Source of the DNA: a virus
Taxonomy: Duplodnaviria > Heunggongvirae > Uroviricota > Caudoviricetes
Reading direction: 5' to 3' (one strand)
Length of the DNA stretch: 44,072 nucleotides
IMG/VR virus record: IMGVR_UViG_3300045988_043987
The translations under genes were made by a program, and so were the position numbers. Shown one piece after another: positions 26,243 through 42,605 of this stretch (its first letter is position 1; each line of letters opens with the position of its first letter). The notes under the pieces were generated by a model. It was not told the DNA's origin, ran no database searches, and worked only from the letters and a program-made list of their open reading frames with translations.

Positions 26243-26268
26243 AAGGCCCCGAAAGGGGCCTTTTCTCT
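26243..26268. terminator. bidirectional intrinsic terminator
   Basis: AAGGCCCC-GAAA-GGGGCCTT plus TTTT. Confidence 0.7.
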
Positions 26269-26404
26269 ACTCTTCTGATACCTTCTCCAGTACAAACGCC
26301 AGTTGCGCATTAGCGGCATCTCTTTGCTGCCGTAGTCGTAGAACCTCTTCTTCAAGTTCCTTGATACGTTTTTGTAATGCCGGAATCGGGGCTATGATGT
26401 TCAT
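26267..26404 (-). CDS. hypothetical coiled-coil micro-protein (45 aa)
   Basis: ATGA coupling to stop of Toprim gene; below track cutoff. Confidence 0.3.
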   Translation of the reverse strand: MNIIAPIPALQKRIKELEEEVLRLRQQRDAANAQLAFVLEKVSEE

Positions 26405-26916
26405 CTGGTAAATTTCCTCGCAAGATACGTTATTTCTTCTTCACAAAGTTCATCAAGGTCATTTGACACAAATCCTCTGGTGAATGTTTTGCTGAACTTT
26501 AAGCCCGCTTTATCATTGTCACCGGCGCACACCCATTCATACGGCAAAAGTGACATTTGCTGCCGTAAGTCCGCTGGTATGTTCGACCCCAATGCGCTAA
26601 CTGCATTAAACCCGCAATTCATCAAAGCAACAGCTTTAAATATGCTTTCGGTAACAAATACCACCCCGCTACTCGGCAAATACTCAAGTCCCCATAAACA
26701 CGGCCTTGTTGTTCGGGTATAGTACCGCGCGTCTTTATGGTTCTTGCAGTTCTTTTCGGCGTGTGGTTTGTAGTGCTGGTACCCGCGAAGCCTACCGTCA
26801 AATCCCCACAGGTAAAACGTAGCTACTCCAGGGCCTAAGACTACACGTAAACGGTCCGCGTCAAAACCTCGTGACAGCAGATGTGCCTTAAGTAGTAACT
26901 CCTCGCTGCCCATCAT
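26401..26916 (-). CDS. Toprim-domain protein (putative)
   Basis: VTESIFKAVAL (Toprim Glu) and CAGDNDKAG (DxD) motifs. Confidence 0.5.
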   Translation of the reverse strand: MMGSEELLLKAHLLSRGFDADRLRVVLGPGVATFYLWGFDGRLRGYQHYKPHAEKNCKNHKDARYYTRTTRPCLWGLEYLPSSGVVFVTESIFKAVALMNCGFNAVSALGSNIPADLRQQMSLLPYEWVCAGDNDKAGLKFSKTFTRGFVSNDLDELCEEEITYLARKFTR

Positions 26917-28337
26917 TTCTTACCTCGTCTCTTCATGTAGTTAAGCAACTCTTCCTGCACCGATTTCTTCTCATCAGTACGCGCGGCAACAACCTCGTCA
27001 AGAGTGTCTTTGGCAACGATATGATAGAGGAACACCGGGCGCTCGTGGCCTGCCTGTTTCTGGCGGACTGGGCCTATGCGCTCGACAACCTGCAAATAGT
27101 GCTCAAGGTTCCACCCTGGCGAAATAAACGCCAGATGATGCCCGCCGTCCTGTAAATTGAGGCCGTGGCCCGCCGACGCAGGATGCACGCATAAGATTTC
27201 GATTTCGCCGCGGTTCCACGCTTCCATCTGCTTATTACCCTTAGCGCCTTTGGCGAACGCCTGCGCCTGCGGGAATCGTTTAAGGATGCGCTCCAGTTCA
27301 TGCTTGAACTGATAGGCGACTAGCAACGGTGCACCCTGCAACTCTTCCACAATGGACTCCAGTGCGTCCAGTTTCGTGTCGTGCACTTTCTCCCAGTCTT
27401 TCGTTGCTTCGCCGTCCGGCCCTGACACATACACGGCACCGGATGCAATCTGAAGGCACTTAGATGTCTTCGCCGCCGCGTTAGCCGCTTCAACTTCCCC
27501 GCTCTCCAGCTCCGCGAATAGCTTCTCCTCCATATCGATGTACGCCTGACGTGCTTTCTTCGGCAGGTCGATTTCAACCGGTACGATAATCGGCGCTTCA
27601 CATCCGAACCACTCGGCGGCGTCAATCGTGAGACTAATGTCCTTCATCTTCTGGTGAATCTCGGTATCCGCCCCCGGGCGGGCATGGTACTCGCGTGCCA
27701 TCGCCGACTTACCTTTCTGTACCGAGTTAAACCAGCGGTCTGTGAATGCCGTGTATGAAGACCCCAAGCGCTCTCCTGCGTCGATAAACCAGTTCTGGCC
27801 CCACAAGTCCTTGAGGCCGTTCGGTGATGGTGTGCCAGTCAGGTTGATAAAACGCTTAACCTTACCGAAAGCAACCTTGCTAAGAGCCTTTGCGCGCTTG
27901 CTTCCACCTGAACGGCTGCGGAACGATTTAAGCTTCGTGCTTTCATCGGCAACGATAACCGTAAAAGGCCAGTCGTCTTTGCCGTAGTAGTCAATCAGCC
28001 ACTCGATAACTTCGTAGTTTGTGCACACCACGTTAGCGTCTGACTCCAGTGCCGCGATGCGACGCCTCTCGCTACCTGTTGCATCTACGACACTCAGGCA
28101 TGGAAATCGCCATTTCTCTTGTTCTGCGGGCCATGTGCCGGATGCGACGCGCAACGGAGCGAGGATTAACACGCGGTCGTCGTCCGTAAGCTGCCCGTTG
28201 CGGAACAGTCTGTTTAACGTCCACAGTACGCTGCCAGTCTTCCCGGCACCCATGCTTGCCCATATGTTGCAGCGATGGTGCCGCAACATGAACGAGGTAA
28301 TGAGCTTCTGGTACTCGCGCCTTTGAAACTTACTCAT
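26913..28337 (-). CDS. SF2 DNA helicase (SNF2/DEAD-like)
   Basis: Walker A MGAGKTG, Walker B/DExx VIVADEST, helicase C-terminal region. Confidence 0.85.
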   Translation of the reverse strand: MSKFQRREYQKLITSFMLRHHRCNIWASMGAGKTGSVLWTLNRLFRNGQLTDDDRVLILAPLRVASGTWPAEQEKWRFPCLSVVDATGSERRRIAALESDANVVCTNYEVIEWLIDYYGKDDWPFTVIVADESTKLKSFRSRSGGSKRAKALSKVAFGKVKRFINLTGTPSPNGLKDLWGQNWFIDAGERLGSSYTAFTDRWFNSVQKGKSAMAREYHARPGADTEIHQKMKDISLTIDAAEWFGCEAPIIVPVEIDLPKKARQAYIDMEEKLFAELESGEVEAANAAAKTSKCLQIASGAVYVSGPDGEATKDWEKVHDTKLDALESIVEELQGAPLLVAYQFKHELERILKRFPQAQAFAKGAKGNKQMEAWNRGEIEILCVHPASAGHGLNLQDGGHHLAFISPGWNLEHYLQVVERIGPVRQKQAGHERPVFLYHIVAKDTLDEVVAARTDEKKSVQEELLNYMKRRGKK

Positions 28338-29254
28338 TTACAGCCCCCATGAACGCCTTTATAAATTCAGCGGCTACTTGCGGGACGATGGCATTGCCGT
28401 AACCGCGCAATCGTCCCACTCTGGCGGGTATCCCATTAGCCAGCGGGAATGTGCCGGGTTCAACTGGCCGGAACTTTCCATCCCTGCATCCGAGCCAGTC
28501 AGCATCCGACCAGAAGCTGCGATTCGGATTGCCCCCACGAGGTAGCATTGATTGTGCAGATTGTTCGGGTCTCTTTTTGTTTCCGCCTCGCTGTAGCTGC
28601 CGTGACGCGAATTCTGAACCGTCGGCGTCCCCCATGCCGCTTTCAGTCCCTGCTCTGTTGAGTAGTCCAGCCTGTCGAATGTTCTGTCCTTCCCGTCCTT
28701 GCGAATCACTGTCTCTCCGCTCCCTTTGTGATCGTTCGCTGTCGGTGTCGGCCAGTTGGTACGCACCAAAGAAGAGTCGTTCTCTTTTATGCGGAGCGCC
28801 GACGCTACAAGCTGGGAGTACGGCAAACCCGACGGCGTAGTCTTCTCCTTCCAGGTGAGTTTGTAAATCGCACATCCACGATTTTGCAATTGCTGGCGCA
28901 ACCTGTTCCCCAAAGAGGACTGGAGGGTGGCACTCGCTGATGAGGTCGAGGAAGACTGGCGCGAGGTGTCTCGGGTCGAACTGTCCGAGTTGTTTTCCTG
29001 CCGCGCTAAACGGTTGGCAAGGCGGGCTTCCCGTCCAGAGAGGCGTATCTTCCGAAACTCCCGCAAGTCTGAGCGCGAGAGGCCAGCCGCCGATGCCAGC
29101 GAAAAAAATGACACTGGGTGAACCCGTCAAGGTCTTCTGGCTTAACTTCGGTAATGCTTCTTTCATCTACAACTCCAAAAGGTATGTGACCCTGTTTTAT
29201 TAATTCACGCAGCCACGCGGCTGCACCTTTATCCCATTCATTGTAATAGTTCAT
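28330..29254 (-). CDS. DNA cytosine-5 methyltransferase, reading frame interrupted at a homopolymer
   Basis: motifs NEWDK, FFAGIGGW, PCQPFSAAGK, GEQV, GNAIVPQVA; N-terminal 82-aa ORF (29254-29006) and catalytic ORF (29166-28330) differ by one base at the A7 run 29102-29108. Confidence 0.75.
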
Positions 29255-29442
29255 TTGGCCACCAGAACTAACTCTTTACGCCCGAACGCCGTAACGTTAC
29301 CTGTTACGTCTTCGATAACCAGTTTGCCGTTCGACTCTACGAACACTGTATCAACGGCAACAGGACGACGGGTCTTAACGTTGAAAATCATGTCGCCCGG
29401 TACGATGTCACGTGCTGGTTTGCGGTCATATTCGTGTTTCAT
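29251..29442 (-). CDS. hypothetical protein (63 aa)
   Basis: AAGGA ribosome-binding site; stop overlaps methyltransferase start (ATGA). Confidence 0.55.
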   Translation of the reverse strand: MKHEYDRKPARDIVPGDMIFNVKTRRPVAVDTVFVESNGKLVIEDVTGNVTAFGRKELVLVAK

Positions 29443-29461
29443 TTCTCAATTCCTTATATTG

Positions 29462-29492
29462 TTGGTGTAGGACTAACTATAGTAGTTCGCTA
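29462..29492 (-). promoter_or_regulatory. sigma70-like promoter (TTGACG-17-TATAGT) with dyad operator in spacer
   Basis: minus-strand TTGACG, 17-bp spacer containing AATAGCGAACTACTAT, -10 TATAGT. Confidence 0.5.
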
Positions 29493-29757
29493 TTAGGTCG
29501 TCAACCTGTTTGAACGAACCAACGACAAAAACATTTGCACCACGTTTGCGCATCCGCTCGTGCTCTCGTAACTGGTGCGGGTCAGGCTTCGTGCTTTCGT
29601 CTTTCTTAACCTCGACGAACCAGATGATGCCGCCGGGGAGAATTACCAGCAGGTCAGGAGCGCCGGAGCGCCCCTCGTAGGAAAGTTTACGAACGAGGCC
29701 ACCAATGGCCTCGAATCGCTCTTTTGCGTATTTCTGTATTTTTCCTTCCGGGGTCAC
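29473..29757 (-). CDS. VRR-NUC domain nuclease
   Basis: PD-(D/E)XK-like pattern GAPDLLVILPGGIIWFVEVKK ... HQLREHERMRKRGANVFVV. Confidence 0.65.
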   Translation of the reverse strand: MTPEGKIQKYAKERFEAIGGLVRKLSYEGRSGAPDLLVILPGGIIWFVEVKKDESTKPDPHQLREHERMRKRGANVFVVGSFKQVDDLIANYYS

Positions 29758-29948
29758 AGCAAAGGCTCCGCATCCGGGTTACGCAGGAAGTACGCTTGAT
29801 AGATGTCGTGTTCTGAATAGTAAACGCCTTTGTGCGTACACCCGGCACAAACGTCACTAAAGAACCCATCACCCATTACCATGATAAATTCCCATTCTGG
29901 CATATCCACCAACGCAGCTAGTTTCTTACTAAATGGTTTGTTGCTCAT
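29754..29948 (-). CDS. hypothetical protein (64 aa)
   Basis: ATG at 29948 preceded by GAGGGG. Confidence 0.5.
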   Translation of the reverse strand: MSNKPFSKKLAALVDMPEWEFIMVMGDGFFSDVCAGCTHKGVYYSEHDIYQAYFLRNPDAEPLL

Positions 29949-30030
29949 AATACGCACCCCTCTCGTTTTGTATGCTCAATACCACAGCGCGGACAGATTC
30001 GGCAGTCTTCTTCATAAAACCAGTAAATTT

Positions 30031-30162
30031 TCATTCCAGCACCCACAGATAAATTGCGATGAACATGCCCAGTACGGCGACAATCATGCCGTATTGGCCC
30101 TCGTGACAGTAGACACCGGCGGCAAATCCCGCCAGTACCGCGATAATCAGTTTACTTAGCAT
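30031..30162 (-). CDS. hypothetical membrane micro-protein (43 aa)
   Basis: ATG overlaps last codons of DNA polymerase gene; single hydrophobic helix pair; below track cutoff. Confidence 0.3.
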   Translation of the reverse strand: MLSKLIIAVLAGFAAGVYCHEGQYGMIVAVLGMFIAIYLWVLE

Positions 30163-32335
30163 AGCGCTTCATCTCCGCACCTTCCGCCACAAGAGGGAAC
30201 CCCTCTGCCCACTCCGGTAATTCGCACATCAACCGCTCAAGCTCTGCAACATTGTATTCCGGTAAATCTGGCGTCTCGCAGATAATCTCATCGTGAACAT
30301 GAAGTACAATCGGGTAGCCGTTTGCCTCTACGTTCAGCAGCGCATTAGCCAGCAAATCACGGCACAGCGCCTGCGTGCAGTTTTCCACCAGTTTACCGGA
30401 GTAGGTGTACTGAAAGCCCCACTGACGGGTTAGCTGATTTTCACCCTGATACTTGATGCGGACGTTAGTAGACACTTTTCCATCTTCGTCTGTCTCTTTC
30501 GACACGCTTAACCCAACACCCGGATAAGACATAACACGACCCGACGGCAGCGTCATACGCAACCACCAACCGGCGACTTTGTTGCCGTTGTTGTCTGTCT
30601 CCACGTTACGCGAAAACTTAACTCCCCGCGGCCCTGCGGTGAACTCTTTACCTGGATTGCGAATAGCTGCCATAGCCGCATCTTCAATATCTCGCCAGAA
30701 AGCTACGGTTTCCGGGTGGGACTCACGCCACATGCGTTTGATAGCGTCACAGGTACGCCACACTTTCTTATCAAGAATATATGATGGTCGGTCATCTTTT
30801 TCACCTGGCCGCGGAGGCCGCTTGGCTTCCTGAATACGCGCCCACTCATATCCACGCGCGGTAGCGGCCCAGATGTGGTCGGGGAAAGTACCGTCCATTG
30901 TTTTAGCCATATCAACAAGGTCAAGGCCGAGGTTCTTAGCAAACTGAACGAAAGCACCTACACCGCCTGCGTAGCCGAGGCCCAATTCGCAGGCTTTACC
31001 AATCTGCCGTAAGTCTTTACGTTCTTTCTTAATGTAATCCGGCTCCATGCCAAACATCTTACCTGCGGTTACGCAGTAAATATCCAGCCCAGCACGGAAC
31101 GTATCTAACGCGGTTTCTTCCCCCGCCAGCCACGCGAGACCGCGGCCTTCAACGTTAGAGTAATCGGCAACGACAAACTTATGCCCGGCTTCCGGGATAA
31201 TGCAGCTACGAACCGTCGATGCCGTCAGCTTGGCTACATCGAAACGGCGGTGCGCGCGGCCCTTAAGTAACGCTGAAATGCCTTTATCCAGTTCATCATC
31301 ATCATGGTAATACCCGCGCGCCAGGTTCTGCGGCTGGAAGCCTTTACCCGCAAACCGTAACGTACGCTTTGCCCCACCGTACTGGATGCAACCGCGGCGT
31401 CGGTCGTCAGAAGAGCGGCCTAACAGCAGCGGGTTATATTTCGTTGACGCCGTGGACGCGGCCCCGAGGCGCATTTCGATAATCGTGCGGGCGTCGTCCG
31501 GTAAATCATCATCCGCCAGCAGGTCATTCAGCGTCGACTTCTGCGCATTGTGGATGCGGTGCGCGGGTGCGAGTTCACGCAGAATCGGAAGGAAGTCTTT
31601 ACCGGTAAGCGAGCCGCCGTATTTGCGCTGTGCTTCTTCCTGTAACTGCGCTTTATGTTTCTCCACGGCTTCAATCGCGGCTTCCGCCAGCGCGACGTCA
31701 ACCTTAAACCCTCGGTCATTGATTAACTGGTCCAGTTCCAGTACGCGGTCCTCGAACTCAGAGTTACCCCACCGCGGTAGCTTATGGAAAACTTCACGCA
31801 TCGCAGTGATGTCGCTCACGGCGTACTTGATGAATAGCGCCCACTCGTCCGGGTGTGTTTCGGCGGTGTAACGGCGGATTTTGTAGTTCTTCGGCGTAGG
31901 TTTAGAAAAACGCTGAATCAGTGCCTTGCCGCGTTTATCTTTCGCGTTGTCCGCGGATACGCCCAGCACTTCGCACAGCGCATCGAGAGAACCCGGCAGC
32001 GCGTGACGAAACGCCCAAATCATCGTATCAATGGTGTTGCTTACCGGAATATCAAAGCCCCAGCAGTGCTTCATGATGAGCCTATCGAAAAGTCCACCGT
32101 TGTGCCACACCATCTTAATTCGGCTGTTTGGCTTCACCAGACGGCGTAACACGCGGTGCAAATCCCCCGGCATGTCGCTGCCGTCCGTGCAATCCCACAC
32201 CTGCACAGGCTCGTCATCGAAAGCATAGGTACAGATTAACACTTCGGTTGACGGGTGTTCGGCGTAAGCGTAGGAACCGACTTTCTTTAAATCGGCTTCG
32301 GAGAATGTTTCAAAGTCTAAGAACAGGTAACTCAT
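30152..32335 (-). CDS. DNA polymerase, family A, with 3'-5' exonuclease domain
   Basis: N-terminal Exo I motif LFLDFETFS; 727 aa; polymerase-domain pattern. Confidence 0.9.
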   Translation of the reverse strand: MSYLFLDFETFSEADLKKVGSYAYAEHPSTEVLICTYAFDDEPVQVWDCTDGSDMPGDLHRVLRRLVKPNSRIKMVWHNGGLFDRLIMKHCWGFDIPVSNTIDTMIWAFRHALPGSLDALCEVLGVSADNAKDKRGKALIQRFSKPTPKNYKIRRYTAETHPDEWALFIKYAVSDITAMREVFHKLPRWGNSEFEDRVLELDQLINDRGFKVDVALAEAAIEAVEKHKAQLQEEAQRKYGGSLTGKDFLPILRELAPAHRIHNAQKSTLNDLLADDDLPDDARTIIEMRLGAASTASTKYNPLLLGRSSDDRRRGCIQYGGAKRTLRFAGKGFQPQNLARGYYHDDDELDKGISALLKGRAHRRFDVAKLTASTVRSCIIPEAGHKFVVADYSNVEGRGLAWLAGEETALDTFRAGLDIYCVTAGKMFGMEPDYIKKERKDLRQIGKACELGLGYAGGVGAFVQFAKNLGLDLVDMAKTMDGTFPDHIWAATARGYEWARIQEAKRPPRPGEKDDRPSYILDKKVWRTCDAIKRMWRESHPETVAFWRDIEDAAMAAIRNPGKEFTAGPRGVKFSRNVETDNNGNKVAGWWLRMTLPSGRVMSYPGVGLSVSKETDEDGKVSTNVRIKYQGENQLTRQWGFQYTYSGKLVENCTQALCRDLLANALLNVEANGYPIVLHVHDEIICETPDLPEYNVAELERLMCELPEWAEGFPLVAEGAEMKRYAK

Positions 32336-32352
32336 TATTTTCGACCCTTAGT

Positions 32353-32377
32353 AAAAAGGCCCAATGAAGGGCCTTAG
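32353..32377 (-). terminator. intrinsic terminator/attenuator between SSB and polymerase genes
   Basis: minus-strand hairpin GGCCC-N6-GGGCC followed by TTTTTA. Confidence 0.55.
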
Positions 32378-32394
32378 TTAAATTGATTCAGATA

Positions 32395-33024
32395 TTAACG
32401 GCGACGACGTTCGCGACGTGGTGCGTCATCTTCTTCGTCGTCTTCAAGGTCGTCGGTGCTCGCTACTACACTGGAGCCTCCGAAGCGTTTACCTTCTCCC
32501 ATATACTTGATACCAAGGATGGTAGCGCACAGGTTTTTCCAATCTTTGTGCCACCATAATTCTACAGATACGTTTGCTACACAACCGCTATAAACCTGCT
32601 CCCCTTCTACTTCCTTCCCGTCGATGTTGAAATCAGGCTCGGTTTGTTTTTCACCTTTAGCCGATGTCATAATCACCGGTTGGCGGTTGTTAGTAGCACG
32701 GAAGTACAGACCTTCTTCAAAATCCTCAATCGGATTGTCGCGCATTGCCAGGTCGCGGACGCAGCATTTGTCTGCGTGGTGGTCTGCACCGTAGTTGGCC
32801 TTCATCCATTTCTCAGCAGCAGCAGCCCCGATTGCCTCTGTTACAACTTCCATAGCGGTATCGTAAAGCGCATCAATTTGAGGATGGTCCGGCTGCATAA
32901 GAACAGTAACCTGATATTTACCCTTAATCAGTTTACCGGTTTTCTTGTCCTCAGAGTCGGCAGCACGTTCAAATACATTAACCCATGCAGTGTTTACTTT
33001 ACGCAGATTCAGCTTAATACCCAT
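32395..33024 (-). CDS. single-stranded DNA-binding protein (T7 gp2.5-like, putative)
   Basis: overall pattern and acidic C-terminal stretch DDLEDDEEDD, here followed by RRERRRR. Confidence 0.5.
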   Translation of the reverse strand: MGIKLNLRKVNTAWVNVFERAADSEDKKTGKLIKGKYQVTVLMQPDHPQIDALYDTAMEVVTEAIGAAAAEKWMKANYGADHHADKCCVRDLAMRDNPIEDFEEGLYFRATNNRQPVIMTSAKGEKQTEPDFNIDGKEVEGEQVYSGCVANVSVELWWHKDWKNLCATILGIKYMGEGKRFGGSSVVASTDDLEDDEEDDAPRRERRRR

Positions 33025-33074
33025 CTTGATTTCTCGCTTTTAAGTTTCGTTTACTCCGGGAACTGCCCGGCCAG

Positions 33075-33106
33075 TGGTTAGAAATATAATAGCTAACTAT
33101 TCAGGT
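33075..33106 (-). promoter_or_regulatory. sigma70-like promoter (TTGACA-17-TATATT) with dyad operator in spacer
   Basis: minus-strand GTGTTGACA, 17-bp spacer containing TGAATAGTTAGCTATT, -10 TATATT; upstream of SSB gene. Confidence 0.6.
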
Positions 33107-33115
33107 GTCAACACT

Positions 33116-34378
33116 TTATTCCAAATCTTCTTCACTAACCCGATTCCACTCAGGCCGTTTGTCGTCGGCTGTTGCGACGCATGGCGCCCCCCGCTTGCGT
33201 GTGATGAAGTCTTTCAGTTCTTCTTCCGGTATTACTTTAACCGCTTCGGTCGGTGTCATGAGCACTACCTTTTGCAGCATAGTACCGTACTTCTCGAATA
33301 CTGCATCGGCATCTTTCCACGCACGATTACCTGGGCGGCCCTCGACCAGCTTGTACCCCGGCACTTTCTTACCGGAATGCAACGCGACCGCCATAGCTTT
33401 CTCAACCTTGTCGATGTGCTGGCGCAACAACGGCAACTTCTCGTACTCAGATACGAGTTGCTCTGGTGTCAGTTCCAGTGCAAAGTCGTCTTCCAGTTCT
33501 TCCGCCAGTACCGCGTTAACTGTTTTTGTACGCGCGGCGCACTGTTCAGAGAAACGACACCACTGACAACCATCGACCGACGGCTTGAAGTCCGACGCTT
33601 TCAGGTTCTTCTTGCCACGGAAATACGCATCAAGAGCCAACAGCGCGCGTTTTTGTGCGAACTTAGCGAACAGTTCCAGACCTTCAACCGAGATATCCCA
33701 CTCCGACGCACCTCCGGCATACGGCTGGAAGATGGCCAGACGAACCATGGTGATGTTATAGCGTCTCTTGAGTCGGCGATAAACACCGAGAGCGTAAAGC
33801 ATAAGCTGCTTGTTTTCTTTCGCTTCGACGCGATGTCTCCCGGTTTTAAGGTCGCCGATAATGAGCATTGCTGAGTTACTTTCACCCGTAAAGCCTTCTA
33901 TAACCGCCACTAAGTCGGCGGTTCCGAACGTCTCAACACCTTCATAGCCCGGATGCAATACCTCAGTAAGATTGACGCGCATTTCCAGCTTAGCGTAAGT
34001 CGCTACATCGATAATAGCTTTGCAGTAGTCGGTGTACTTGCGCACCTGCTCAATCATGTCAGCTGTAATCAGTACCGCGCCTTTCATCGGACTGATTAGC
34101 GCCTTAATATGGCCTTTACCATCATCCAGAACATACGCACCTACTTCACGCTCTAACGGCAGCGCAGTTCCGCGAATATAGGCGTTGAGATGTACCTCAG
34201 CTATGGTGTGGCACGCGGTCCCTGTAACGGCGGCTTTACCCGACGTGTTAGGAATATCTTTTTCACAGGCTAGCGATGCACTGCACGTCAGCCACTTCTT
34301 AGCACCTGACGGCGACAGTAGGGCGTGCACATCGTTATTACCACCGCGTTCTTTTAGAATCATACTCTGCTCTCCCAC
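33116..34378 (-). CDS. PD-(D/E)XK exonuclease, RecB/Cas4-like with Cys cluster
   Basis: nuclease core IIGDLKTG...EAKE...QLMLYALG; N-terminal Cys and C-terminal CQWCRFSEQC. Confidence 0.65.
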   Translation of the reverse strand: MGEQSMILKERGGNNDVHALLSPSGAKKWLTCSASLACEKDIPNTSGKAAVTGTACHTIAEVHLNAYIRGTALPLEREVGAYVLDDGKGHIKALISPMKGAVLITADMIEQVRKYTDYCKAIIDVATYAKLEMRVNLTEVLHPGYEGVETFGTADLVAVIEGFTGESNSAMLIIGDLKTGRHRVEAKENKQLMLYALGVYRRLKRRYNITMVRLAIFQPYAGGASEWDISVEGLELFAKFAQKRALLALDAYFRGKKNLKASDFKPSVDGCQWCRFSEQCAARTKTVNAVLAEELEDDFALELTPEQLVSEYEKLPLLRQHIDKVEKAMAVALHSGKKVPGYKLVEGRPGNRAWKDADAVFEKYGTMLQKVVLMTPTEAVKVIPEEELKDFITRKRGAPCVATADDKRPEWNRVSEEDLE

Positions 34379-34632
34379 TGGTCAATTAAATGTCGCGTCT
34401 TATGGTCGCAGTGCATCGCCCACCCGTACATCGACTCGAAGACATAAAAGTCAGGTTTGGCGAAAGTCGTGCGTTTAATCTGCGACACATGACGGCCTAT
34501 ATCTTTATGCCGTGGTACTTTGCCTAAGTATGCCATCTCTTCCATCTGGTGCGCACCTGACGTCGCACGCAATAGCCACAACGCCTCGGTGTTATCCCGC
34601 CTGTCTACGGCGCGGTAGAGTTGGTAAATCAT
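34360..34632 (-). CDS. hypothetical protein (90 aa)
   Basis: ORF in replication module. Confidence 0.5.
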   Translation of the reverse strand: MIYQLYRAVDRRDNTEALWLLRATSGAHQMEEMAYLGKVPRHKDIGRHVSQIKRTTFAKPDFYVFESMYGWAMHCDHKTRHLIDQWESRV

Positions 34633-34675
34633 AATTCCGACCCTCAGTTAAAGCGGCCCGAAGGCCGCGAGATAG

Positions 34676-35146
34676 TTATTCTTCTTCGAAATACTTGTTC
34701 TTGATTGCTGTCAAGCGTTCCAGGTATTCAGCCAGGTCTTCGTCTTTAATCGCAGCAATCTTCATCTTCTTGCCGGTGAACTCTTCCAGCAGTTCATCTG
34801 AATCATCGCACGCGGCATCGCTAGGACCTTCGTTAATAGCATCGTCGATAGCCTGAATCTGGTCACGCAGAGACTGGTAATCTACCTCTTCCTTCTCTTC
34901 TTCCGGCTCTGGCGTTGGTTCCTCTACTTTAGCTTTACGCGGCTTGCGTTTCGGCTTCTCTTCTTCTGCCGGTTTAGTGTCGACGATGTCTTCACCTTCG
35001 ACCGGGATTTCTTTTGTTGCTTCTTTTACAACATTAGGCTCAATTGTTGCGGTTTCAGCAACGACAACTTGTTTCGCACTGTTCGCAGCAATCAGTTCAT
35101 GTGCAACTACGAAACGTTCCAGTAATACTAAGAATTTCTCTAACAT
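34676..35146 (-). CDS. hypothetical acidic protein (156 aa)
   Basis: Glu/Asp-rich ORF; GAGAGGAGAGA before start. Confidence 0.55.
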   Translation of the reverse strand: MLEKFLVLLERFVVAHELIAANSAKQVVVAETATIEPNVVKEATKEIPVEGEDIVDTKPAEEEKPKRKPRKAKVEEPTPEPEEEKEEVDYQSLRDQIQAIDDAINEGPSDAACDDSDELLEEFTGKKMKIAAIKDEDLAEYLERLTAIKNKYFEEE

Positions 35147-35167
35147 TTGTTTCTCTCCTCTCGTTTG

Positions 35168-35200
35168 GTATGCACTAACTATAATAGCTAACTATTCATT
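35168..35200 (+). promoter_or_regulatory. dyad operator/promoter motif, copy upstream of helix-turn-helix gene (site 1)
   Basis: ATGCAC-TAAC-TATAAT-AGCTAACTATTCA. Confidence 0.55.
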
Positions 35201-35221
35201 ATGTCAATGGGCTTTTCTAAA

Positions 35222-35250
35222 ATAATTAATATGGTACTATTCACATATCA
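35222..35250 (+). promoter_or_regulatory. dyad operator/promoter motif, site 2, about 20 nt before ribosome-binding site of helix-turn-helix gene
   Basis: TAATATGGTACTATTCACAT, one mismatch from canonical copies. Confidence 0.55.
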
Positions 35251-35271
35251 ACTGACTAAGGAGTAATTGAC

Positions 35272-35487
35272 ATGCAACCATCTGAACTAGGCATCCGTGT
35301 AGAACAACGCCGTAAAGAACTCGGTATCTCCCAGCGCCGTCTGGCGGTCCTGGCCGGTGTTTCCCAGGGCGCGATTAACCAGCTGGCACTTGGAGTAACT
35401 CAGGACGTCCGCCCGGCGACGCTGTTCAAGCTGGCGGAAGTGCTGGAAGTAGACGCCAAGTGGCTGGCGTTCGGTGAAGGGGCTTAA
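35272..35487 (+). CDS. XRE-family (Cro/CI-like) helix-turn-helix transcriptional regulator
   Basis: helix-turn-helix signature ISQRRLAVLAGVSQGAINQL; AAGGAG ribosome-binding site; lone plus-strand gene in minus-strand module. Confidence 0.75.
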   Translation: MQPSELGIRVEQRRKELGISQRRLAVLAGVSQGAINQLALGVTQDVRPATLFKLAEVLEVDAKWLAFGEGA

Positions 35488-35503
35488 CGCCCCTTTCTTT
35501 TCA
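35477..35503 (+). terminator. intrinsic terminator
   Basis: GGGGC-TTAAC-GCCCC followed by TTTCTTTTC. Confidence 0.6.
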
Positions 35504-35527
35504 TTCCTCTACGGCTTTCTCGCATAA

Positions 35528-35638
35528 TCACTCGAGAAACGAAACAAGACCGCAGATTAAATCCTCAGAAACAATAAATTGGCCGTCATCTTCCTGTTCG
35601 CACTGCTTCAACTCAGCAATTAACTGTTCAGCGTTCAT
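35528..35638 (-). CDS. hypothetical acidic micro-protein (36 aa)
   Basis: ATGA coupling to primase stop; below track cutoff. Confidence 0.25.
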   Translation of the reverse strand: MNAEQLIAELKQCEQEDDGQFIVSEDLICGLVSFLE

Positions 35639-37896
35639 TCCAAATCCTCATCTGTCACCACCAGCATTTCATTCGGTTCGTATATTGTCTTCGGAATTTT
35701 GTTGTCGTTTATACCCCACGGCAGCCGGTACTGCTTAGGTATAGGTCTGTTGTTGCCATCCAGACCTGAGACGATAACCCCAGCCTCGTGCATCTCTTCC
35801 AGTTTCTTTCTAAGGTCGTTATTGGCGTTAATTGGTACGCCATAACTATCTTCTTTCGCGGCTTTGACGATAGCCGACATAGAGAACCCTCGCTTATCGT
35901 CGCCCTGCTCCTGCAATTTACCCAATGCGTAAATAACCGTAGCCTCTTTGGTGTCCAGTTTCTCGAACTGGCCTACCTTTTCTTTAACGGCTTCCTTCTG
36001 TTCGTCGGTCATACCTTCTACTTTCTTCACGAAGACAGAGAAGGCGTTAAAGTTAACAAAGACATCGATGTGCGGGTTTCCTGCGTCAAAATCGCGGACA
36101 TCATCACTACTGTACCCTTCCGGAAGACCCATGAAGTTGTGAGTTGGCTCTTTCTTTTTCGGTGGCTCCGCTATCTGAATCTTCTGTATTACAAATCCTC
36201 TGGCTTTCTGCCGTTCTCCGTTTCGGTTCTTTATGTGATACAGGTTTATCCCTAAGTTATTGTCGTTGTCAGGCTTATGCAGGAACATCCCGTTATCGAT
36301 GGAGTTGTGAAAGTCACTTCCACCCTTCGGCATCATGCCGTTTTCCGACGGTACTGTTTCGTCGATGTTTTTAGTCGGGTGCACCATAGCACCTACCGCG
36401 GCGTTAAGCGTCGACGCTATTTCGTTAAGTGCCTGCGCCGCTTCTTTCATTGACCTGTTGTCGTTTTCGTCAAAGCCAGGTATGCAAGTTTGCAGGGTAT
36501 CAAACGTAACCTTTACAATTTTCTCTTCACCGGCAACACGGCGCATCATTCTCACCACCTGACGTCGCCATGCTTCGTCGAGTAAGTTACATCCCTCCGC
36601 AACACAATCGATAATGTGCAAGCGGTCCAAGTTATCGCCGAGGGCAATCTGCAAAGATTTTTTATGTCGCTCGAACGACCGCACACCTTCACCCGCAAAA
36701 ATAAACGCATGACCTTCCGCTACCTCAGCCCCGCCGAACGCATATCTTTTTTCGGCAGCAATAGCGGCGTCAATCGCCATACTAAATGTTGACTTACCGG
36801 TATGCGACTTTGCACAAATGTAGAATGATTCGTTAGTCTGCATAAGACCATCTACGACGGAGTATGCAGGTTCTTTTTCTAATTCCGGCTCGTCTTCAAG
36901 GTCTTCCAGCGTGCAAGTTACAGGTTCCTCGTTCTCTGTGCGGTGCAGTTCTTCAATCTCTTCATCAGGTAAATCAGGCAGAGCCGCGCGAATGCTGTTA
37001 ACGCTGATAGGTTGCTTGTCTACGTTAAGCTCGTCAGGTAGACCACACATACGCAGGGCCAAATGCTGCCTACGGTTAAGCTCGGTGCAAGCGCCGTTGT
37101 TTGTATGCTGGCAGACAAAGCGCACTTCTTTACCGTCTAGCATGATGCTGGTGGAGCCTTTGCCTGTGTGCAGATGTTCGTTAGGGCATGGCACTTCGTA
37201 CCCGCGCCCGGAAGATAAAGCATCAAGCCCAAGCTCGGCTTCGCAGAAATGCGCTATATCTGCGTTAAGCCCATGCTCATCGGCAGCAAGTGTCTTGGCT
37301 TCGCGTTTACGCAACCCCATCTCTTCGGCTTTCTTGATGTACCGCTCGGCACGGATAACACGCCCCTCTGTAACCGTTATCTTCGACTCTTTATGCGGCA
37401 GGTAGATAAGGCGGTTGCCATCTTCTGTGCAGTGGTCACGCAGCGATTCATCTATTTCTAACTCTGCACAAATAGCCCGTTGCACCATCCACGCATCGTT
37501 AGAGTTAAACGGAGTGCGAGCCGGAACCAGAACGCGGAATGCGTAATCCCCGTTTTTACACGCGTGCTGATGCGATGCCGTTGTGTGCAGAATATTGAAG
37601 AACGGCGCGTTCTTGAATTTGCGTGTCAGGTCGCGGTACTGAGTACGGTTGAGATGGTCGAAGTCGAACTTAACCACACTGTCTTCCAGAATCGCATTCT
37701 TACGGCGACCGCCAACAGGAGCAATAGCCTTCTGCTTAATCTTAGCCGCGTCGTATTCTTCCTTAGTCCACGACGGGTCCACGGACAAACGCTTCGATGT
37801 ATCGCAGACGTACTCTACAAACTGCTCCAGCGGCATTTCACGTGCTACAGGGTTTTTATCGAATGTGTTACGCAGCGTTGCAAAAACAATATTCAT
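35635..37896 (-). CDS. DNA primase / P-loop ATPase (primase-helicase-like replication protein)
   Basis: Cys/His zinc-binding cluster, Walker A SHTGKST, 753 aa. Confidence 0.75.
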   Translation of the reverse strand: MNIVFATLRNTFDKNPVAREMPLEQFVEYVCDTSKRLSVDPSWTKEEYDAAKIKQKAIAPVGGRRKNAILEDSVVKFDFDHLNRTQYRDLTRKFKNAPFFNILHTTASHQHACKNGDYAFRVLVPARTPFNSNDAWMVQRAICAELEIDESLRDHCTEDGNRLIYLPHKESKITVTEGRVIRAERYIKKAEEMGLRKREAKTLAADEHGLNADIAHFCEAELGLDALSSGRGYEVPCPNEHLHTGKGSTSIMLDGKEVRFVCQHTNNGACTELNRRQHLALRMCGLPDELNVDKQPISVNSIRAALPDLPDEEIEELHRTENEEPVTCTLEDLEDEPELEKEPAYSVVDGLMQTNESFYICAKSHTGKSTFSMAIDAAIAAEKRYAFGGAEVAEGHAFIFAGEGVRSFERHKKSLQIALGDNLDRLHIIDCVAEGCNLLDEAWRRQVVRMMRRVAGEEKIVKVTFDTLQTCIPGFDENDNRSMKEAAQALNEIASTLNAAVGAMVHPTKNIDETVPSENGMMPKGGSDFHNSIDNGMFLHKPDNDNNLGINLYHIKNRNGERQKARGFVIQKIQIAEPPKKKEPTHNFMGLPEGYSSDDVRDFDAGNPHIDVFVNFNAFSVFVKKVEGMTDEQKEAVKEKVGQFEKLDTKEATVIYALGKLQEQGDDKRGFSMSAIVKAAKEDSYGVPINANNDLRKKLEEMHEAGVIVSGLDGNNRPIPKQYRLPWGINDNKIPKTIYEPNEMLVVTDEDLE

Positions 37897-40473: not shown

Positions 40474-40614
40474 ATGATTCCCGCAGCAACTTGGATGGAA
40501 GGGTATAGGTCCTGGACTTTAGGCGAACTGGTTGATGCTTACGAGATACTAGGCAGCACTTCGGTGTGTAACGGCGACACGAAAGTGATAACAATGGGGT
40601 TTGATGATGAGTAA
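40474..40614 (+). CDS. hypothetical small protein (46 aa)
   Basis: GAGAGGAG ribosome-binding site; below track cutoff. Confidence 0.4.
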   Translation: MIPAATWMEGYRSWTLGELVDAYEILGSTSVCNGDTKVITMGFDDE

Positions 40615-41275
40615 CAAAAACGAAGTATTCGAGTACCTGATTGACCAGCTACGGCAGCAGCTACCTGTCGTAGATGTAATGGGTGAGATTGAACGGTGGA
40701 GTATCGACCGTAGTATTGCTGGCCGCGGTAACTATACCGACGAGGAAAACGTCATAATCGATGCTTACATCGGCCTGGAGCACAACACATACAAGCAACA
40801 GTGCGAAGACCTGGCACAAGAGGTACAGTCACTCAAGAATCAGTTACGTGATGCGTCTGCACAGATTAAGGAGTTGCAGGAAGACAACATTAGGAAATCC
40901 GAGCACATATCACATATGACCGGGCAATCGTCCGCATATCGTAATGACGCGTTGCGCTTTCAAGCGCAAGTTGATGACCTGGTAAAACGACTGGCTACCG
41001 CTACCGGTGACGTGGAGGCGTACAAACTTATCCGCAAAGGCGGCTACATTTCTGGTGGTCAGCGATACGTAGTAGGTGAACACGGACCTGAGCAATCTGG
41101 TTGCCGCAAAGAAGATACACAAGAATGCAACCATACCTGGAGATTCGTTAATGGTAAGGCTCCCGCCGTTTGTATTAATTGCGGCGTGACTAAATCCAGC
41201 GAGTGTGAACACGAATGGCAATTTTACGGAGTAGGGTTTCCGTGTATGTGCATTAAATGCGGGCTGAAGAAATGA
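40604..41275 (+). CDS. hypothetical protein with coiled-coil and C-terminal Cys-rich zinc-ribbon-like region
   Basis: four CxxC-type pairs near C-terminus. Confidence 0.55.
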   Translation: MMSNKNEVFEYLIDQLRQQLPVVDVMGEIERWSIDRSIAGRGNYTDEENVIIDAYIGLEHNTYKQQCEDLAQEVQSLKNQLRDASAQIKELQEDNIRKSEHISHMTGQSSAYRNDALRFQAQVDDLVKRLATATGDVEAYKLIRKGGYISGGQRYVVGEHGPEQSGCRKEDTQECNHTWRFVNGKAPAVCINCGVTKSSECEHEWQFYGVGFPCMCIKCGLKK

Positions 41276-42033: not shown

Positions 42034-42168
42034 GTGAATCTTGGTGAGTTTAAAACACAGGAACGCGCAGCTATCGCTAATCGACTATTTAACTACTGGA
42101 AATCGCTGGGGTACGAGGATATTCCGACGAAACCTCAGAGACGACAATACATCTGGAGACACAAATGA
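42034..42168 (+). CDS. hypothetical small protein (44 aa, GTG start)
   Basis: gap-filling ORF whose stop overlaps next ATG. Confidence 0.25.
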   Translation: MNLGEFKTQERAAIANRLFNYWKSLGYEDIPTKPQRRQYIWRHK

Positions 42169-42605
42169 CGACTATCGCGTTCGACGGAAAGACAATGGCA
42201 TGTGACACGCGTGTTGTGTGCGGGAGTAACTGTTACAACACAGACACAAAGATATACGAGAATGATTTTGCTGTTATCGGGGTGGCTGGCGATGCCGGAG
42301 TCGGAACTATGCTTATCGATTGTCCGTATATCCTCCAGGCCAGACACTATGACTTCGATTTCGAAGCCCTGGTGTTCGTGAAAGATACAGAAAAAGTGTA
42401 TAAAGTCGCGTTTTATAAATCGTGGGATTGTGCACTAAGTTCGGTTATCCCTGTTGCCGATAGCTTTGCCGCCGTTGGTTCCGGTTCTCCTTATGCACTG
42501 GCGGCCATGGAATGTGGATATTCAGCACATGGAGGTGTGGCCGTTGCCTCGAAGTTCGACACTAACACGGGCGGCAAGATTATTACCAAACAACTATTAG
42601 GATAA
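42165..42605 (+). CDS. HslV/proteasome-beta-like Ntn-hydrolase peptidase (putative)
   Basis: N-terminal MTTIAF (Thr after Met) and GSGSPYALAA motif, as in HslV TTIV... and GSGGPYAQAA. Confidence 0.55.
   Translation: MTTIAFDGKTMACDTRVVCGSNCYNTDTKIYENDFAVIGVAGDAGVGTMLIDCPYILQARHYDFDFEALVFVKDTEKVYKVAFYKSWDCALSSVIPVADSFAAVGSGSPYALAAMECGYSAHGGVAVASKFDTNTGGKIITKQLLG

Follow-up and report, generated by a model that had tools for sequence, protein, structure and literature searches.

A probably self-contained primase-helicase and an accessory DnaG-type protein in the replication-recombination operon of a Kagunavirus-type siphophage

Introduction

Which proteins of a phage replication module make the primers, and which unwind the template, is the question raised by positions 26401–37896 of the IMG/VR virus record IMGVR_UViG_3300045988_043987. 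This record is a 44,072-nucleotide stretch of tailed-phage DNA (Caudoviricetes), and the whole of it is referred to below as the window. The original prediction had distributed priming and unwinding over three proteins, namely a 753-residue protein with a zinc-binding region and a Walker A motif, a 474-residue SNF2/DEAD-like helicase and a 171-residue protein with only Toprim-like motifs. The domain calls behind this proposal proved right. The division of labour did not hold in the same way: the 753-residue protein appears complete alone, the SNF2 protein is of the remodeller type and the 171-residue protein is optional. The explanation regarded here as probable is a replication-recombination operon with a self-contained 753-residue primase-helicase, to which the 171-residue protein is accessory.

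Identity of the gene block and its relatives

An open reading frame (ORF) check found all of the named ORFs on the minus strand, those of the 171-, 474- and 753-residue proteins lying at 26401–26916, 26913–28337 and 35635–37896, respectively. The motifs read earlier in the products (TES...GDNDKAG, the zinc-type pattern, the Walker A motif and the end of the protein that binds single-stranded DNA, the SSB) are all present. Since the GC skew is negative across the whole 26–38 kb and 505 GenBank phage records match positions 26401–37896 by megablast, the block is real coding sequence. The top matches are Escherichia phage VB_EcoS-Golestan, SCS44, EcoPhCCP1, Raoultella phage RP180 and other Kagunavirus, with ~90% identity over 80–95% of the query.

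The RefSeq annotation of Golestan gives the same gene order as 'DNA primase' (516 nucleotides), 'DNA helicase', 'DNA methyltransferase', 'Holliday junction resolvase', 'DNA polymerase', 'DUF2815 family protein', 'exonuclease' and 'replicative helicase-primase'. Gene content and order are thus shared, at ~90% nucleotide identity, with the modules of Golestan, other Kagunavirus and Jerseyvirus (Guernseyvirinae), while several small ORFs of Golestan are missing from the window. The gene set and order are also kept in 43 viral contigs, fetched with the primase-helicase profile, whose primase-helicases are 29–61% identical across lineages. Judged by sequence similarity, the block is a known and already annotated replication-recombination operon of a Kagunavirus-type siphophage. 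The Cas4-like exonuclease, VRR-NUC nuclease, gp2.5-like SSB and family-A polymerase predicted earlier were each upheld by Pfam and PHROG searches. A scan of the window for promoters and terminators gave results near chance level and was not used.

The 753-residue primase-helicase

The 753-residue protein (35635–37896, minus strand) is present in every relative examined. As judged from sequence profiles, the family alignment and a predicted structure, it is a complete primase-helicase in one chain. Its four parts are an archaeo-eukaryotic primase (AEP) domain (residues 1–195; 37312–37896), a zinc-ribbon-like element (residues 237–270; 37087–37188), a RecA-type ATPase, or helicase, core resembling RepA and DnaB (residues 340–510; 36367–36879) and a C-terminal region, which closes with the acidic peptide ...TDEDLE (35638–35655).

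The ATPase core was matched by Pfam AAA_25 at residues 340–510 (E-value, E, 2e-16), and the whole protein by phrog_3228 'replicative helicase-primase' (2e-294) as well as by phrog_19 and phrog_243 'DnaB-like'. The Walker A motif AKSHTGKST (K368) and the Walker B residue D466 are conserved in the family. When the ATPase profile was compared with the PDB, it matched RAD51D (1.6e-6), the RSF1010 RepA helicase 1g8y (1.1e-5) and DnaB (8.5e-3).

The N-terminal part is not recognised in this way. Pfam and NCBIfam gave no match between a curated AEP sequence model and the protein of the window, and the Pfam model BT4734-like_N was reached weakly by 2 of 12 family members (E 0.018). A single-sequence PDB search with the protein was uninformative, and the N-terminal profile gave only noise against PDB sequences, so that fold comparison was required. 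A word-indexed homologue search with the N-terminal 345 residues found two fragments only; it was replaced by an exhaustive HMMER search of representatives, in which, out of 1.84 billion proteins, no more than 14 representative clusters matched residues 1–345, and almost all of these were 715–790 residues long. This small number and near-uniform length show the N-terminal domain to be a narrow family with one architecture. The most distant match, P0037 (788 residues, E 8e-4), has the N-terminal domain in common with the family and a different C-terminal half, whose GNRRYW motif presumably recalls VirE-type ATPases.

Fold comparison placed this domain among the AEPs. The AlphaFold2 (AF2) model has a predicted local distance difference test score (pLDDT) of >85 over most of residues 1–190. 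Foldseek matched the N-terminus in the PDB to the AEP domain of cyanophage S-2L PrimPol (6zp9, E 2.4e-5, prob 1.0), to the RepB' primase of the IncQ plasmid RSF1010 (3h20 and 3h25, 6.5e-4 and 2.7e-3), and to CAPP Prim-Pol, 7nqd being among the structures matched. Weak rows (E 0.06–0.15) included vaccinia D5 (E 0.06, prob 0.57) and the herpes simplex virus helicase-primase. Six residues are invariant in the family alignment: R64, D78, D80, T106, R121 and D154. With the motif definitions of PMC5862659, the stretch VVKFDFD (D78, D80) and D154 fit AEP motifs I (hhhDhD/E) and III (hD/E), where they would be metal ligands. The label 'helicase-primase' is therefore justified by an AEP fold that sequence models overlook.

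The zinc-ribbon-like element (CPNEHLH...FVCQH...C) follows the pattern C237-P-N-x3-H243...C262-x-H264...C270. Among 11–12 homologues sharing 20–70% identity, C237 is invariant, and P238, N239, H243, C262, H264 and C270 are invariant or nearly so, which is consistent with metal binding. As regards the original prediction, the primase domain (of the AEP type), the zinc ribbon and the Walker A motif ascribed to this protein are thus all found in it.

In mobile elements, proteins running from AEP through a zinc-binding domain and a RepA/DnaB helicase to a winged helix are common (Kazlauskas et al. 2018, PMC5862659), and the domain order of the 753-residue protein is that of the mobile-element primase-helicases of the PrimPol-PV1 supergroup. 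Compared with these AEPs, its N-terminal family is very narrow and under the threshold for Pfam AEP models, and its motif II is atypical. Unlike in RSF1010, RepB'-like and RepA-like functions are fused in one chain.

The 171-residue DnaG-type protein

The 171-residue protein (26401–26916, minus strand) had been described as carrying only Toprim-like motifs. Its Toprim and DnaG-like character was confirmed, and the restriction to these motifs was not: by fold and motifs, the protein is a whole DnaG/T7-gp4-type catalytic core, that is an RNA-polymerase domain with both the N-subdomain and Toprim, encoded by a stand-alone gene. In DnaG-type primases, these two parts make up the basic cleft for template and NTPs.

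Sequence searches gave moderate signals, with Pfam Toprim_2 barely over the cutoff (E 1e-4), phrog_849 'DNA primase' at 4e-48, no match to Pfam DNAG_N and only weak matches in a single-sequence PDB search. The family profile was more telling. Six DnaG primases came at the top of the PDB comparison (best E 3e-3), followed by two small Toprim-domain proteins at E 1.3, and residues 38–140 were aligned with residues 198–305 of Aquifex DnaG, the alignment beginning in the GfGGR region, taking in PKYINSP...F and reaching the Toprim DxD.

The AF2 model is compact (pLDDT 94). In Foldseek, it matched the RNA-polymerase domain of E. coli DnaG (3b39, E 2.6e-6, query-based TM-score, TMq, 0.69) and the T7 gp4 primase (1nui, TMq 0.66), as well as the DnaG of Aquifex, Pseudomonas, Mycobacterium and Staphylococcus and T4 gp61. 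The alignments to the RNA-polymerase domains of DnaG, T7 gp4 and T4 gp61 span 165–243 columns, and plain Toprim proteins such as RNase M5 lie far behind the DnaG cores. Viral predicted structures agree with these matches.

Among the 32 invariant columns of the family alignment are K55, E90, D133, D135 and D153. The TES...GDNDKAG motif comprises E90 and D133/D135, which align with E265/D309/D311 of E. coli DnaG. Conserved as well is the stretch PKxxxNPKEARYFTRxxxPCLWGL; altogether, of the six canonical acidic residues the protein keeps five, together with DnaG's PK..N.P...F signature.

The two-subdomain fold and the size are shared with the E. coli DnaG core and with the RNA-polymerase domain of T7 gp4, as present in its 56-kDa form without the zinc-binding domain, as are the Toprim Glu and both DxD motifs. 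The RNA-polymerase domain of T7 gp4 (residues 71–245) is of the same size (PMC2910064). In contrast to T7 gp4 and DnaG, the 171-residue protein is free-standing and its gene is optional. It has no zinc-binding domain of the CHC2 or Cys4 kind, as the first strand of the RNA-polymerase domain begins after ~25 residues and the protein has no Cys/His cluster, and it has no helicase-binding or helicase domain, its end lying ~15 residues past the last Toprim strand. Because two defining features of DnaG, the zinc-binding and helicase-binding domains, are missing, the database label 'DNA primase' is not established and may mislead.

A catalytic domain without a fused zinc ribbon is also found in jumbo phages, whose stand-alone DnaG-like primases go together with primase-type zinc ribbons that also stand alone (Iyer et al. 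2021, PMC7824862). Unlike in those phages, no stand-alone ribbon of this type was found in the window by a regular-expression scan of all frames and by Pfam. The scan returned only the ribbon of the 753-residue protein and a 224-residue coiled-coil protein (40601–41275, plus strand), and the latter was rejected as a partner. It ends in two tandem C-x-H...C-x2-C-G zinc-ribbon-like repeats, which vary in number and sequence among relatives, had no zinc-ribbon match in Pfam and occurs equally in relatives with and without the 171-residue gene.

Distribution and setting of the 171-residue gene

Within Guernseyvirinae the gene is patchily distributed. Near-identical copies (>80% identity) are present in only ~65 phage records by tblastn, as compared with 505 records matching the module. 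Many Kagunavirus megablast matches start at query position 513, which is the exact end of the SNF2 gene, and phage fKuEco01 is cleanly devoid of the 171-residue gene, having a 45-residue ORF directly after the SNF2 gene. Among the 43 metagenomic contigs, ~19 were long enough to judge, and five of these carry the gene, in each case immediately 3' of the SNF2 gene. The five carriers represent three lineages with primase-helicases 98%, 61% and 29% identical to that of the window.

In the window, both junctions of the gene are ATGA stop/start overlaps. The downstream junction leads into a 45-residue coiled-coil ORF (26267–26404, minus strand), the last gene of the operon, which is translationally coupled to the preceding gene and is annotated in Golestan and fKuEco01. 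On this distribution, the 171-residue gene is accessory and dispensable rather than core.

Between the window and the most distant carrier, identity is 71% for the SNF2 protein, 69% for VRR-NUC, 65% for the polymerase (PolA), 55% for the 171-residue protein, 53% for the exonuclease, 40% for the SSB and 29% for the primase-helicase. As the 55% is in step with the other module proteins, the gene seems to have belonged to the module for long and to have been lost repeatedly. Its horizontal acquisition, as betrayed by unusually high conservation, is unsupported; the only outlier is the primase-helicase, on the low side.

In the Jersey-like loci (L010, L011, L014), SNF2, PolA, VRR-NUC and the exonuclease are 92–97% identical to those of the window, the primase-helicase only 61% and the SSB 63%. 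Such uneven identities suggest that the module is mosaic, with replacement of single genes through recombination.

The 171-residue family outside Guernseyvirinae

The family was surveyed in 80 viral loci. These loci are not phylogenetically independent, and regions of the kind in which they lie gather accessory genes. Full-length members (~100 homologues) are uniformly ~163–190 residues long; in the survey, where full-length copies have ~171–190 residues, the exceptions are four ORFs that are truncated, a gene that seems to be split across ORFs and a few ORFs lengthened by upstream start codons.

The next-closest homologues after those of Guernseyvirinae are 172-residue proteins of T5-like phages with ~47% identity. 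In Salmonella phage fuchur, the gene lies inside a tRNA cluster and adjoins NadR-like and PnuC genes. The same phage has a canonical 296-residue primase (Zn_ribbon_DnaG, DNAG_N and Toprim) adjoining a DnaB-like helicase and a polymerase, and the two proteins are barely alignable (BLAST E 0.24). The surveyed loci of the T5-like group contain 6–17 tRNA genes each. In Vibrio phage F100, the homologue and the 3' end of the gene for a tRNA nucleotidyltransferase overlap, and in the Erwinia jumbo phage Y3 its neighbours are miscellaneous genes. The family member is a supernumerary primase-like protein in every genome examined in full.

In large environmental phage contigs, a Rnl1-type RNA ligase (phrog_562), a second RNA ligase (PF09414), an AAA_33/polynucleotide-kinase-like kinase, a metallophosphoesterase and a dual-specificity phosphatase (DSP) lie 1–4 genes from the homologue, in at least four gene orders, with NAMPT, DUF2828/DUF7788 and Acb1 also nearby. 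Across the contigs L076–L129, these genes form recurrent islands, in which the PF09414 ligase has a PHA02142 OB domain. They resemble large-phage gene sets for RNA repair or counter-defence. This neighbourhood should be taken as a lead rather than a result.

The SNF2 protein and the VRR-NUC nuclease

The SNF2 family assignment of the 474-residue protein (26913–28337, minus strand), an ATPase and presumably a translocase, was upheld by SNF2-rel_dom (5e-13) and phrog_62 (1e-167); Helicase_C (2e-4) scored 22.2, short of its cutoff of 23.5. The share in unwinding proposed for it originally found no support. Its PDB relatives, which include Sth1, Snf2, Mot1-like, the Sulfolobus Rad54-like 1z63 and INO80, are all double-stranded-DNA translocases or remodellers. 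The protein was also considered as an equivalent of T5 D10 and rejected, as D10 is XPB/UvsW-like and not SNF2.

The SNF2 gene co-occurs in every lineage with that of a 94-residue VRR-NUC nuclease (29473–29757, minus strand), the latter being supported by Pfam VRR_NUC (E 0.004, under the cutoff), phrog_93 'endonuclease' (2e-33) and phrog_5702 'Holliday junction resolvase'. From this constant co-occurrence and the remodeller family, the SNF2 protein is more likely a fork or branch remodeller, acting in regression, branch migration or restart, than a replicative unwinder.

Proposed explanation and its alternatives

In the explanation preferred here, the 753-residue protein would form a ring helicase on the lagging-strand template and would synthesise primers with its own AEP domain, aided by its own zinc ribbon. 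It would in this way unite the roles of RSF1010 RepB' and RepA. PolA would elongate the primers and the SSB would cover single-stranded DNA, while the exonuclease, SSB, VRR-NUC and SNF2 proteins would process ends and branched or stalled intermediates, which may lead to recombination-dependent replication and fork restart. The 171-residue protein would be a second, unrelated primase-type module, namely an accessory oligoribonucleotide-synthesising enzyme and not the main lagging-strand primase. In this phage, it would most likely provide auxiliary priming, or re-prime, at intermediates on which the SNF2/VRR-NUC pair acts; a role in RNA repair or counter-defence is nearly as likely. Priming cannot depend on the 171-residue protein, because most relatives keep the 753-residue protein, with its invariant DxD and Asp, without the 171-residue gene.

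Several observations weigh against this explanation. The candidate for AEP motif II (sxH) in the 753-residue protein reads HTTASH, in which T106 is the sole invariant residue, the His positions differing among family members (H/Y, H/D). None of the Pfam zinc-ribbon models reached E 1 against its ribbon, the AF2 confidence of which is only 55–75. In the 171-residue subfamily, one canonical acidic residue (the D of ExxxD; E. coli D269, T7 D161) is Lys, the position being Asp in the most distant members of the family. When T7 primase lacks its zinc-binding domain, template-directed synthesis is abolished and only random diribonucleotides are made, at a very low rate (PMC2910064). By this analogy, the stand-alone 171-residue domain may need a partner or perform different chemistry. 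The idea of re-priming is weakened by the complete absence of the family from replication modules outside Guernseyvirinae. Finally, the literature found on these phages consists of genome descriptions, and no biochemistry of the module proteins was found in it.

One alternative, a sharpened form of the original prediction, is a split primosome, in which the 171-residue domain would catalyse and borrow the zinc ribbon of the 753-residue protein in trans, the AEP-like domain serving origin binding or loading. The 171-residue protein has no zinc-binding domain of its own and the 753-residue protein has a conserved Cys/His ribbon; use of the zinc-binding domain in trans on an adjacent subunit is documented for T7 gp4 (PMC2910064), and the pairing of DnaG-like primases with separate ribbons in jumbo phages (PMC7824862) offers a parallel. 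Such an arrangement is nevertheless improbable, given that most relatives have the 753-residue protein and no 171-residue gene, that the 171-residue family occurs in T5-like and other large phages with no relative of the 753-residue protein nearby, that Pfam searches detect no DnaG CHC2 character in the ribbon and that the closest T5-like homologue coexists with a canonical zinc-finger primase. Still less credit is due to the view that the 171-residue ORF is what is left, functionless and decaying, of a primase gene after loss of the zinc finger. The patchy presence among close relatives and the replaced acidic residue would suit it, but the uniform length of ~100 full-length homologues from very different phages, the 32 invariant columns including metal ligands, the confident compact fold and the 55% identity between lineages, in step with essential module proteins, make it very hard to sustain. 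The ORF was likewise rejected as a fragment of a larger primase gene, since its homologues are of the same size and both of its ends are clean ATGA overlaps.

A more substantial alternative, though still a tentative one, is that the 171-residue family is not replicative and acts in RNA or tRNA repair or counter-defence as an enzyme acting on or making RNA, the Guernseyvirinae copy merely standing at the end of an early operon. This would agree with the place of the 47%-identical T5-like homologue in the tRNA cluster, with the canonical primase elsewhere by the helicase and PolA, with the tRNA nucleotidyltransferase overlap in F100 and with the proximity of environmental copies to RNA ligases, kinase, phosphoesterase and DSP phosphatase, NAMPT and Acb1. 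Toprim domains can, moreover, be RNases: RNase M5 is among the weaker fold matches, and the OLD and AriB tRNases are reported in the literature. Against this, the fold and the N-subdomain motif (PK..N.P...F..LWGL) are of the DnaG type rather than that of RNase M5 or OLD, no tRNA, structured-RNA or RNA-repair genes were found in the window, and the gene is translationally coupled to a replication/repair ATPase in three lineages. Furthermore, many unrelated functions are gathered in the accessory regions of large phages, and the surveyed loci lack phylogenetic independence. In a wider form, it is possible, if doubtful, that the ~175-residue DnaG-like proteins without a zinc-binding domain are a distinct widespread accessory family serving RNA-repair, tRNA or counter-defence functions and not replicative primases, the SNF2-coupled copy of Guernseyvirinae being a lineage-specific recruitment.

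Conserved C-terminal tails

Several proteins of the module end in conserved charged peptides. The end of the primase-helicase, [ST/A][DE][DE]DL[x], is kept in all lineages, even at 29–33% whole-protein identity (loci L004–L046), and the DUF2800 exonuclease has an end of the same type (...SEEDLE; 33119–33136) in all lineages. The 156-residue acidic protein always ends in Y[FY]E[LE]ED.

The SSB (209 residues; 32395–33024, minus strand) is of the T7 gp2.5/Enc34 ORF6 type, as shown by Enc34_ssDNA-bd (PF10991, the DUF2815 OB-fold domain; 5e-12 over residues 5–200) and phrog_112 'Gp2.5-like'. Its tail (within 32398–33024) consists of the acidic run DDLEDDEEDD followed by an Arg-rich end, present in the sequence as ...STDDLEDDEEDDAPRRERRRR and ...DDLEDDEEDDAPRRERRRR. 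The RRERRRR end had been pointed out as unusual; because an acidic run followed by (A/R)PR[RK][RE]RRR is conserved in all lineages, it is a family trait. Structure and single-stranded-DNA binding have been described for Enc34 ORF6 (PMC5686142), the Enterobacter/Hafnia phage Enc34 having the same SSB family and the same type of module with primase, polymerase, VRR-NUC and helicase. In contrast to Enc34 ORF6 and T7 gp2.5, in which the tail is purely acidic (PMC5686142), the SSB family of the window ends in the conserved Arg-rich stretch.

On the model of T7 gp4 and gp2.5, whose tails are acidic, these tails are probably docking peptides of the replisome, and those of the primase-helicase and exonuclease probably dock onto one common partner, PolA or the SSB. 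The ...[DE][DE]DL peptides and the acidic-then-basic SSB tail suggest a simple docking code for replisome assembly.

Other genes of the module

The family-A DNA polymerase (727 residues; 30152–32335, minus strand) has a 3'-5' exonuclease and is without a 5' nuclease domain (DNA_pol_A 1e-15, DNA_pol_A_exo1 6e-4, phrog_17); the motifs DYSNVEGR, RQIGKACELGLGYAGG and HVHDE are read in its sequence. The PolA ORFs of the relatives L020 and L025 are 1063–1069 residues long, and GenBank notes for related phages (records Shashou and Sciku) mention an 'intein-containing helicase'. Inteins appear to come and go in the module.

The 420-residue DUF2800 protein (33116–34378, minus strand) is a PD-(D/E)XK exonuclease of the Cas4/AddB-like type (DUF2800 2e-66, PDDEXK_1 1e-7, phrog_69 'exonuclease'). 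Its Cys pattern, with one C near the N-terminus and a C-x2-C-x5-C (CQWCRFSEQC), may reflect iron-sulphur binding. Smaller conserved genes on the minus strand encode the 156-residue acidic protein (34676–35146; phrog_3127 2e-64), found in nearly all related loci, a 90-residue protein (34360–34632; phrog_4965 8e-45), found in most of them, and a 63-residue protein (29251–29442; phrog_4879 3e-46). A 71-residue Cro/DicA-like regulator (35272–35487; Pfam HTH_3 2e-12) is encoded inside the module on the plus strand and is annotated as 'transcriptional repressor' in Golestan and fKuEco01.

The C5-cytosine DNA methyltransferase gene appears to be read in two frames. The alpha gene (28330–29254, minus strand; PF00145 5e-16 and alignment with the 930-nucleotide Golestan gene) has motifs I–VIII, motif X and the final GNAIVPQVAAEFI. 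The second frame inside it (28374–29114, minus strand) encodes a beta-like polypeptide of 246 residues with the region WPTPTANDHKGSG (WPTPTA)...LNPAHSRWLMGYPPEW. By tblastn, the second frame has matches in 238 phage records, distant genera included, and nearly all of those listed lie under annotated C5-methyltransferase genes; K1H, K1ind and fKuEco01 annotate both ORFs. In M.EcoHK31I, the beta polypeptide is encoded within the alpha gene in another frame (PMC2836561), and the overlapping alpha/beta arrangement of the window resembles it in its described architecture.

As compared with Golestan, the target-recognition part of the window's methyltransferase differs by indels, and the gene has a +1 T frameshift: positions 29102–29108 are, on the coding strand, a run of seven T instead of six, so that the first 52 codons are no longer in frame with the gene from motif I on. 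This could be a homopolymer sequencing error or a real inactivating or phase-type change, or it could be bypassed by the internal ATG at 29166.

Outside the module, a 146-residue protein (42165–42605, plus strand) has a weak proteasome-subunit (Ntn-hydrolase) family match (E 1.5e-4, slightly under the cutoff).

Significance

For annotation, the value of these results is mostly housekeeping, as the block is a standard Guernseyvirinae replication module. For the biology of the phage, they describe a 44-kb genome with two apparently unrelated primase-type catalytic domains, the DnaG-type one being optional and without a zinc finger for template recognition. If the ~175-residue family does serve RNA-repair, tRNA or counter-defence functions, it could make or process short RNAs under host defences that target tRNA or deplete nucleotides. 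Its occurrence beside tRNA genes and RNA heal-and-seal enzymes is a testable lead to a new role for the primase fold.

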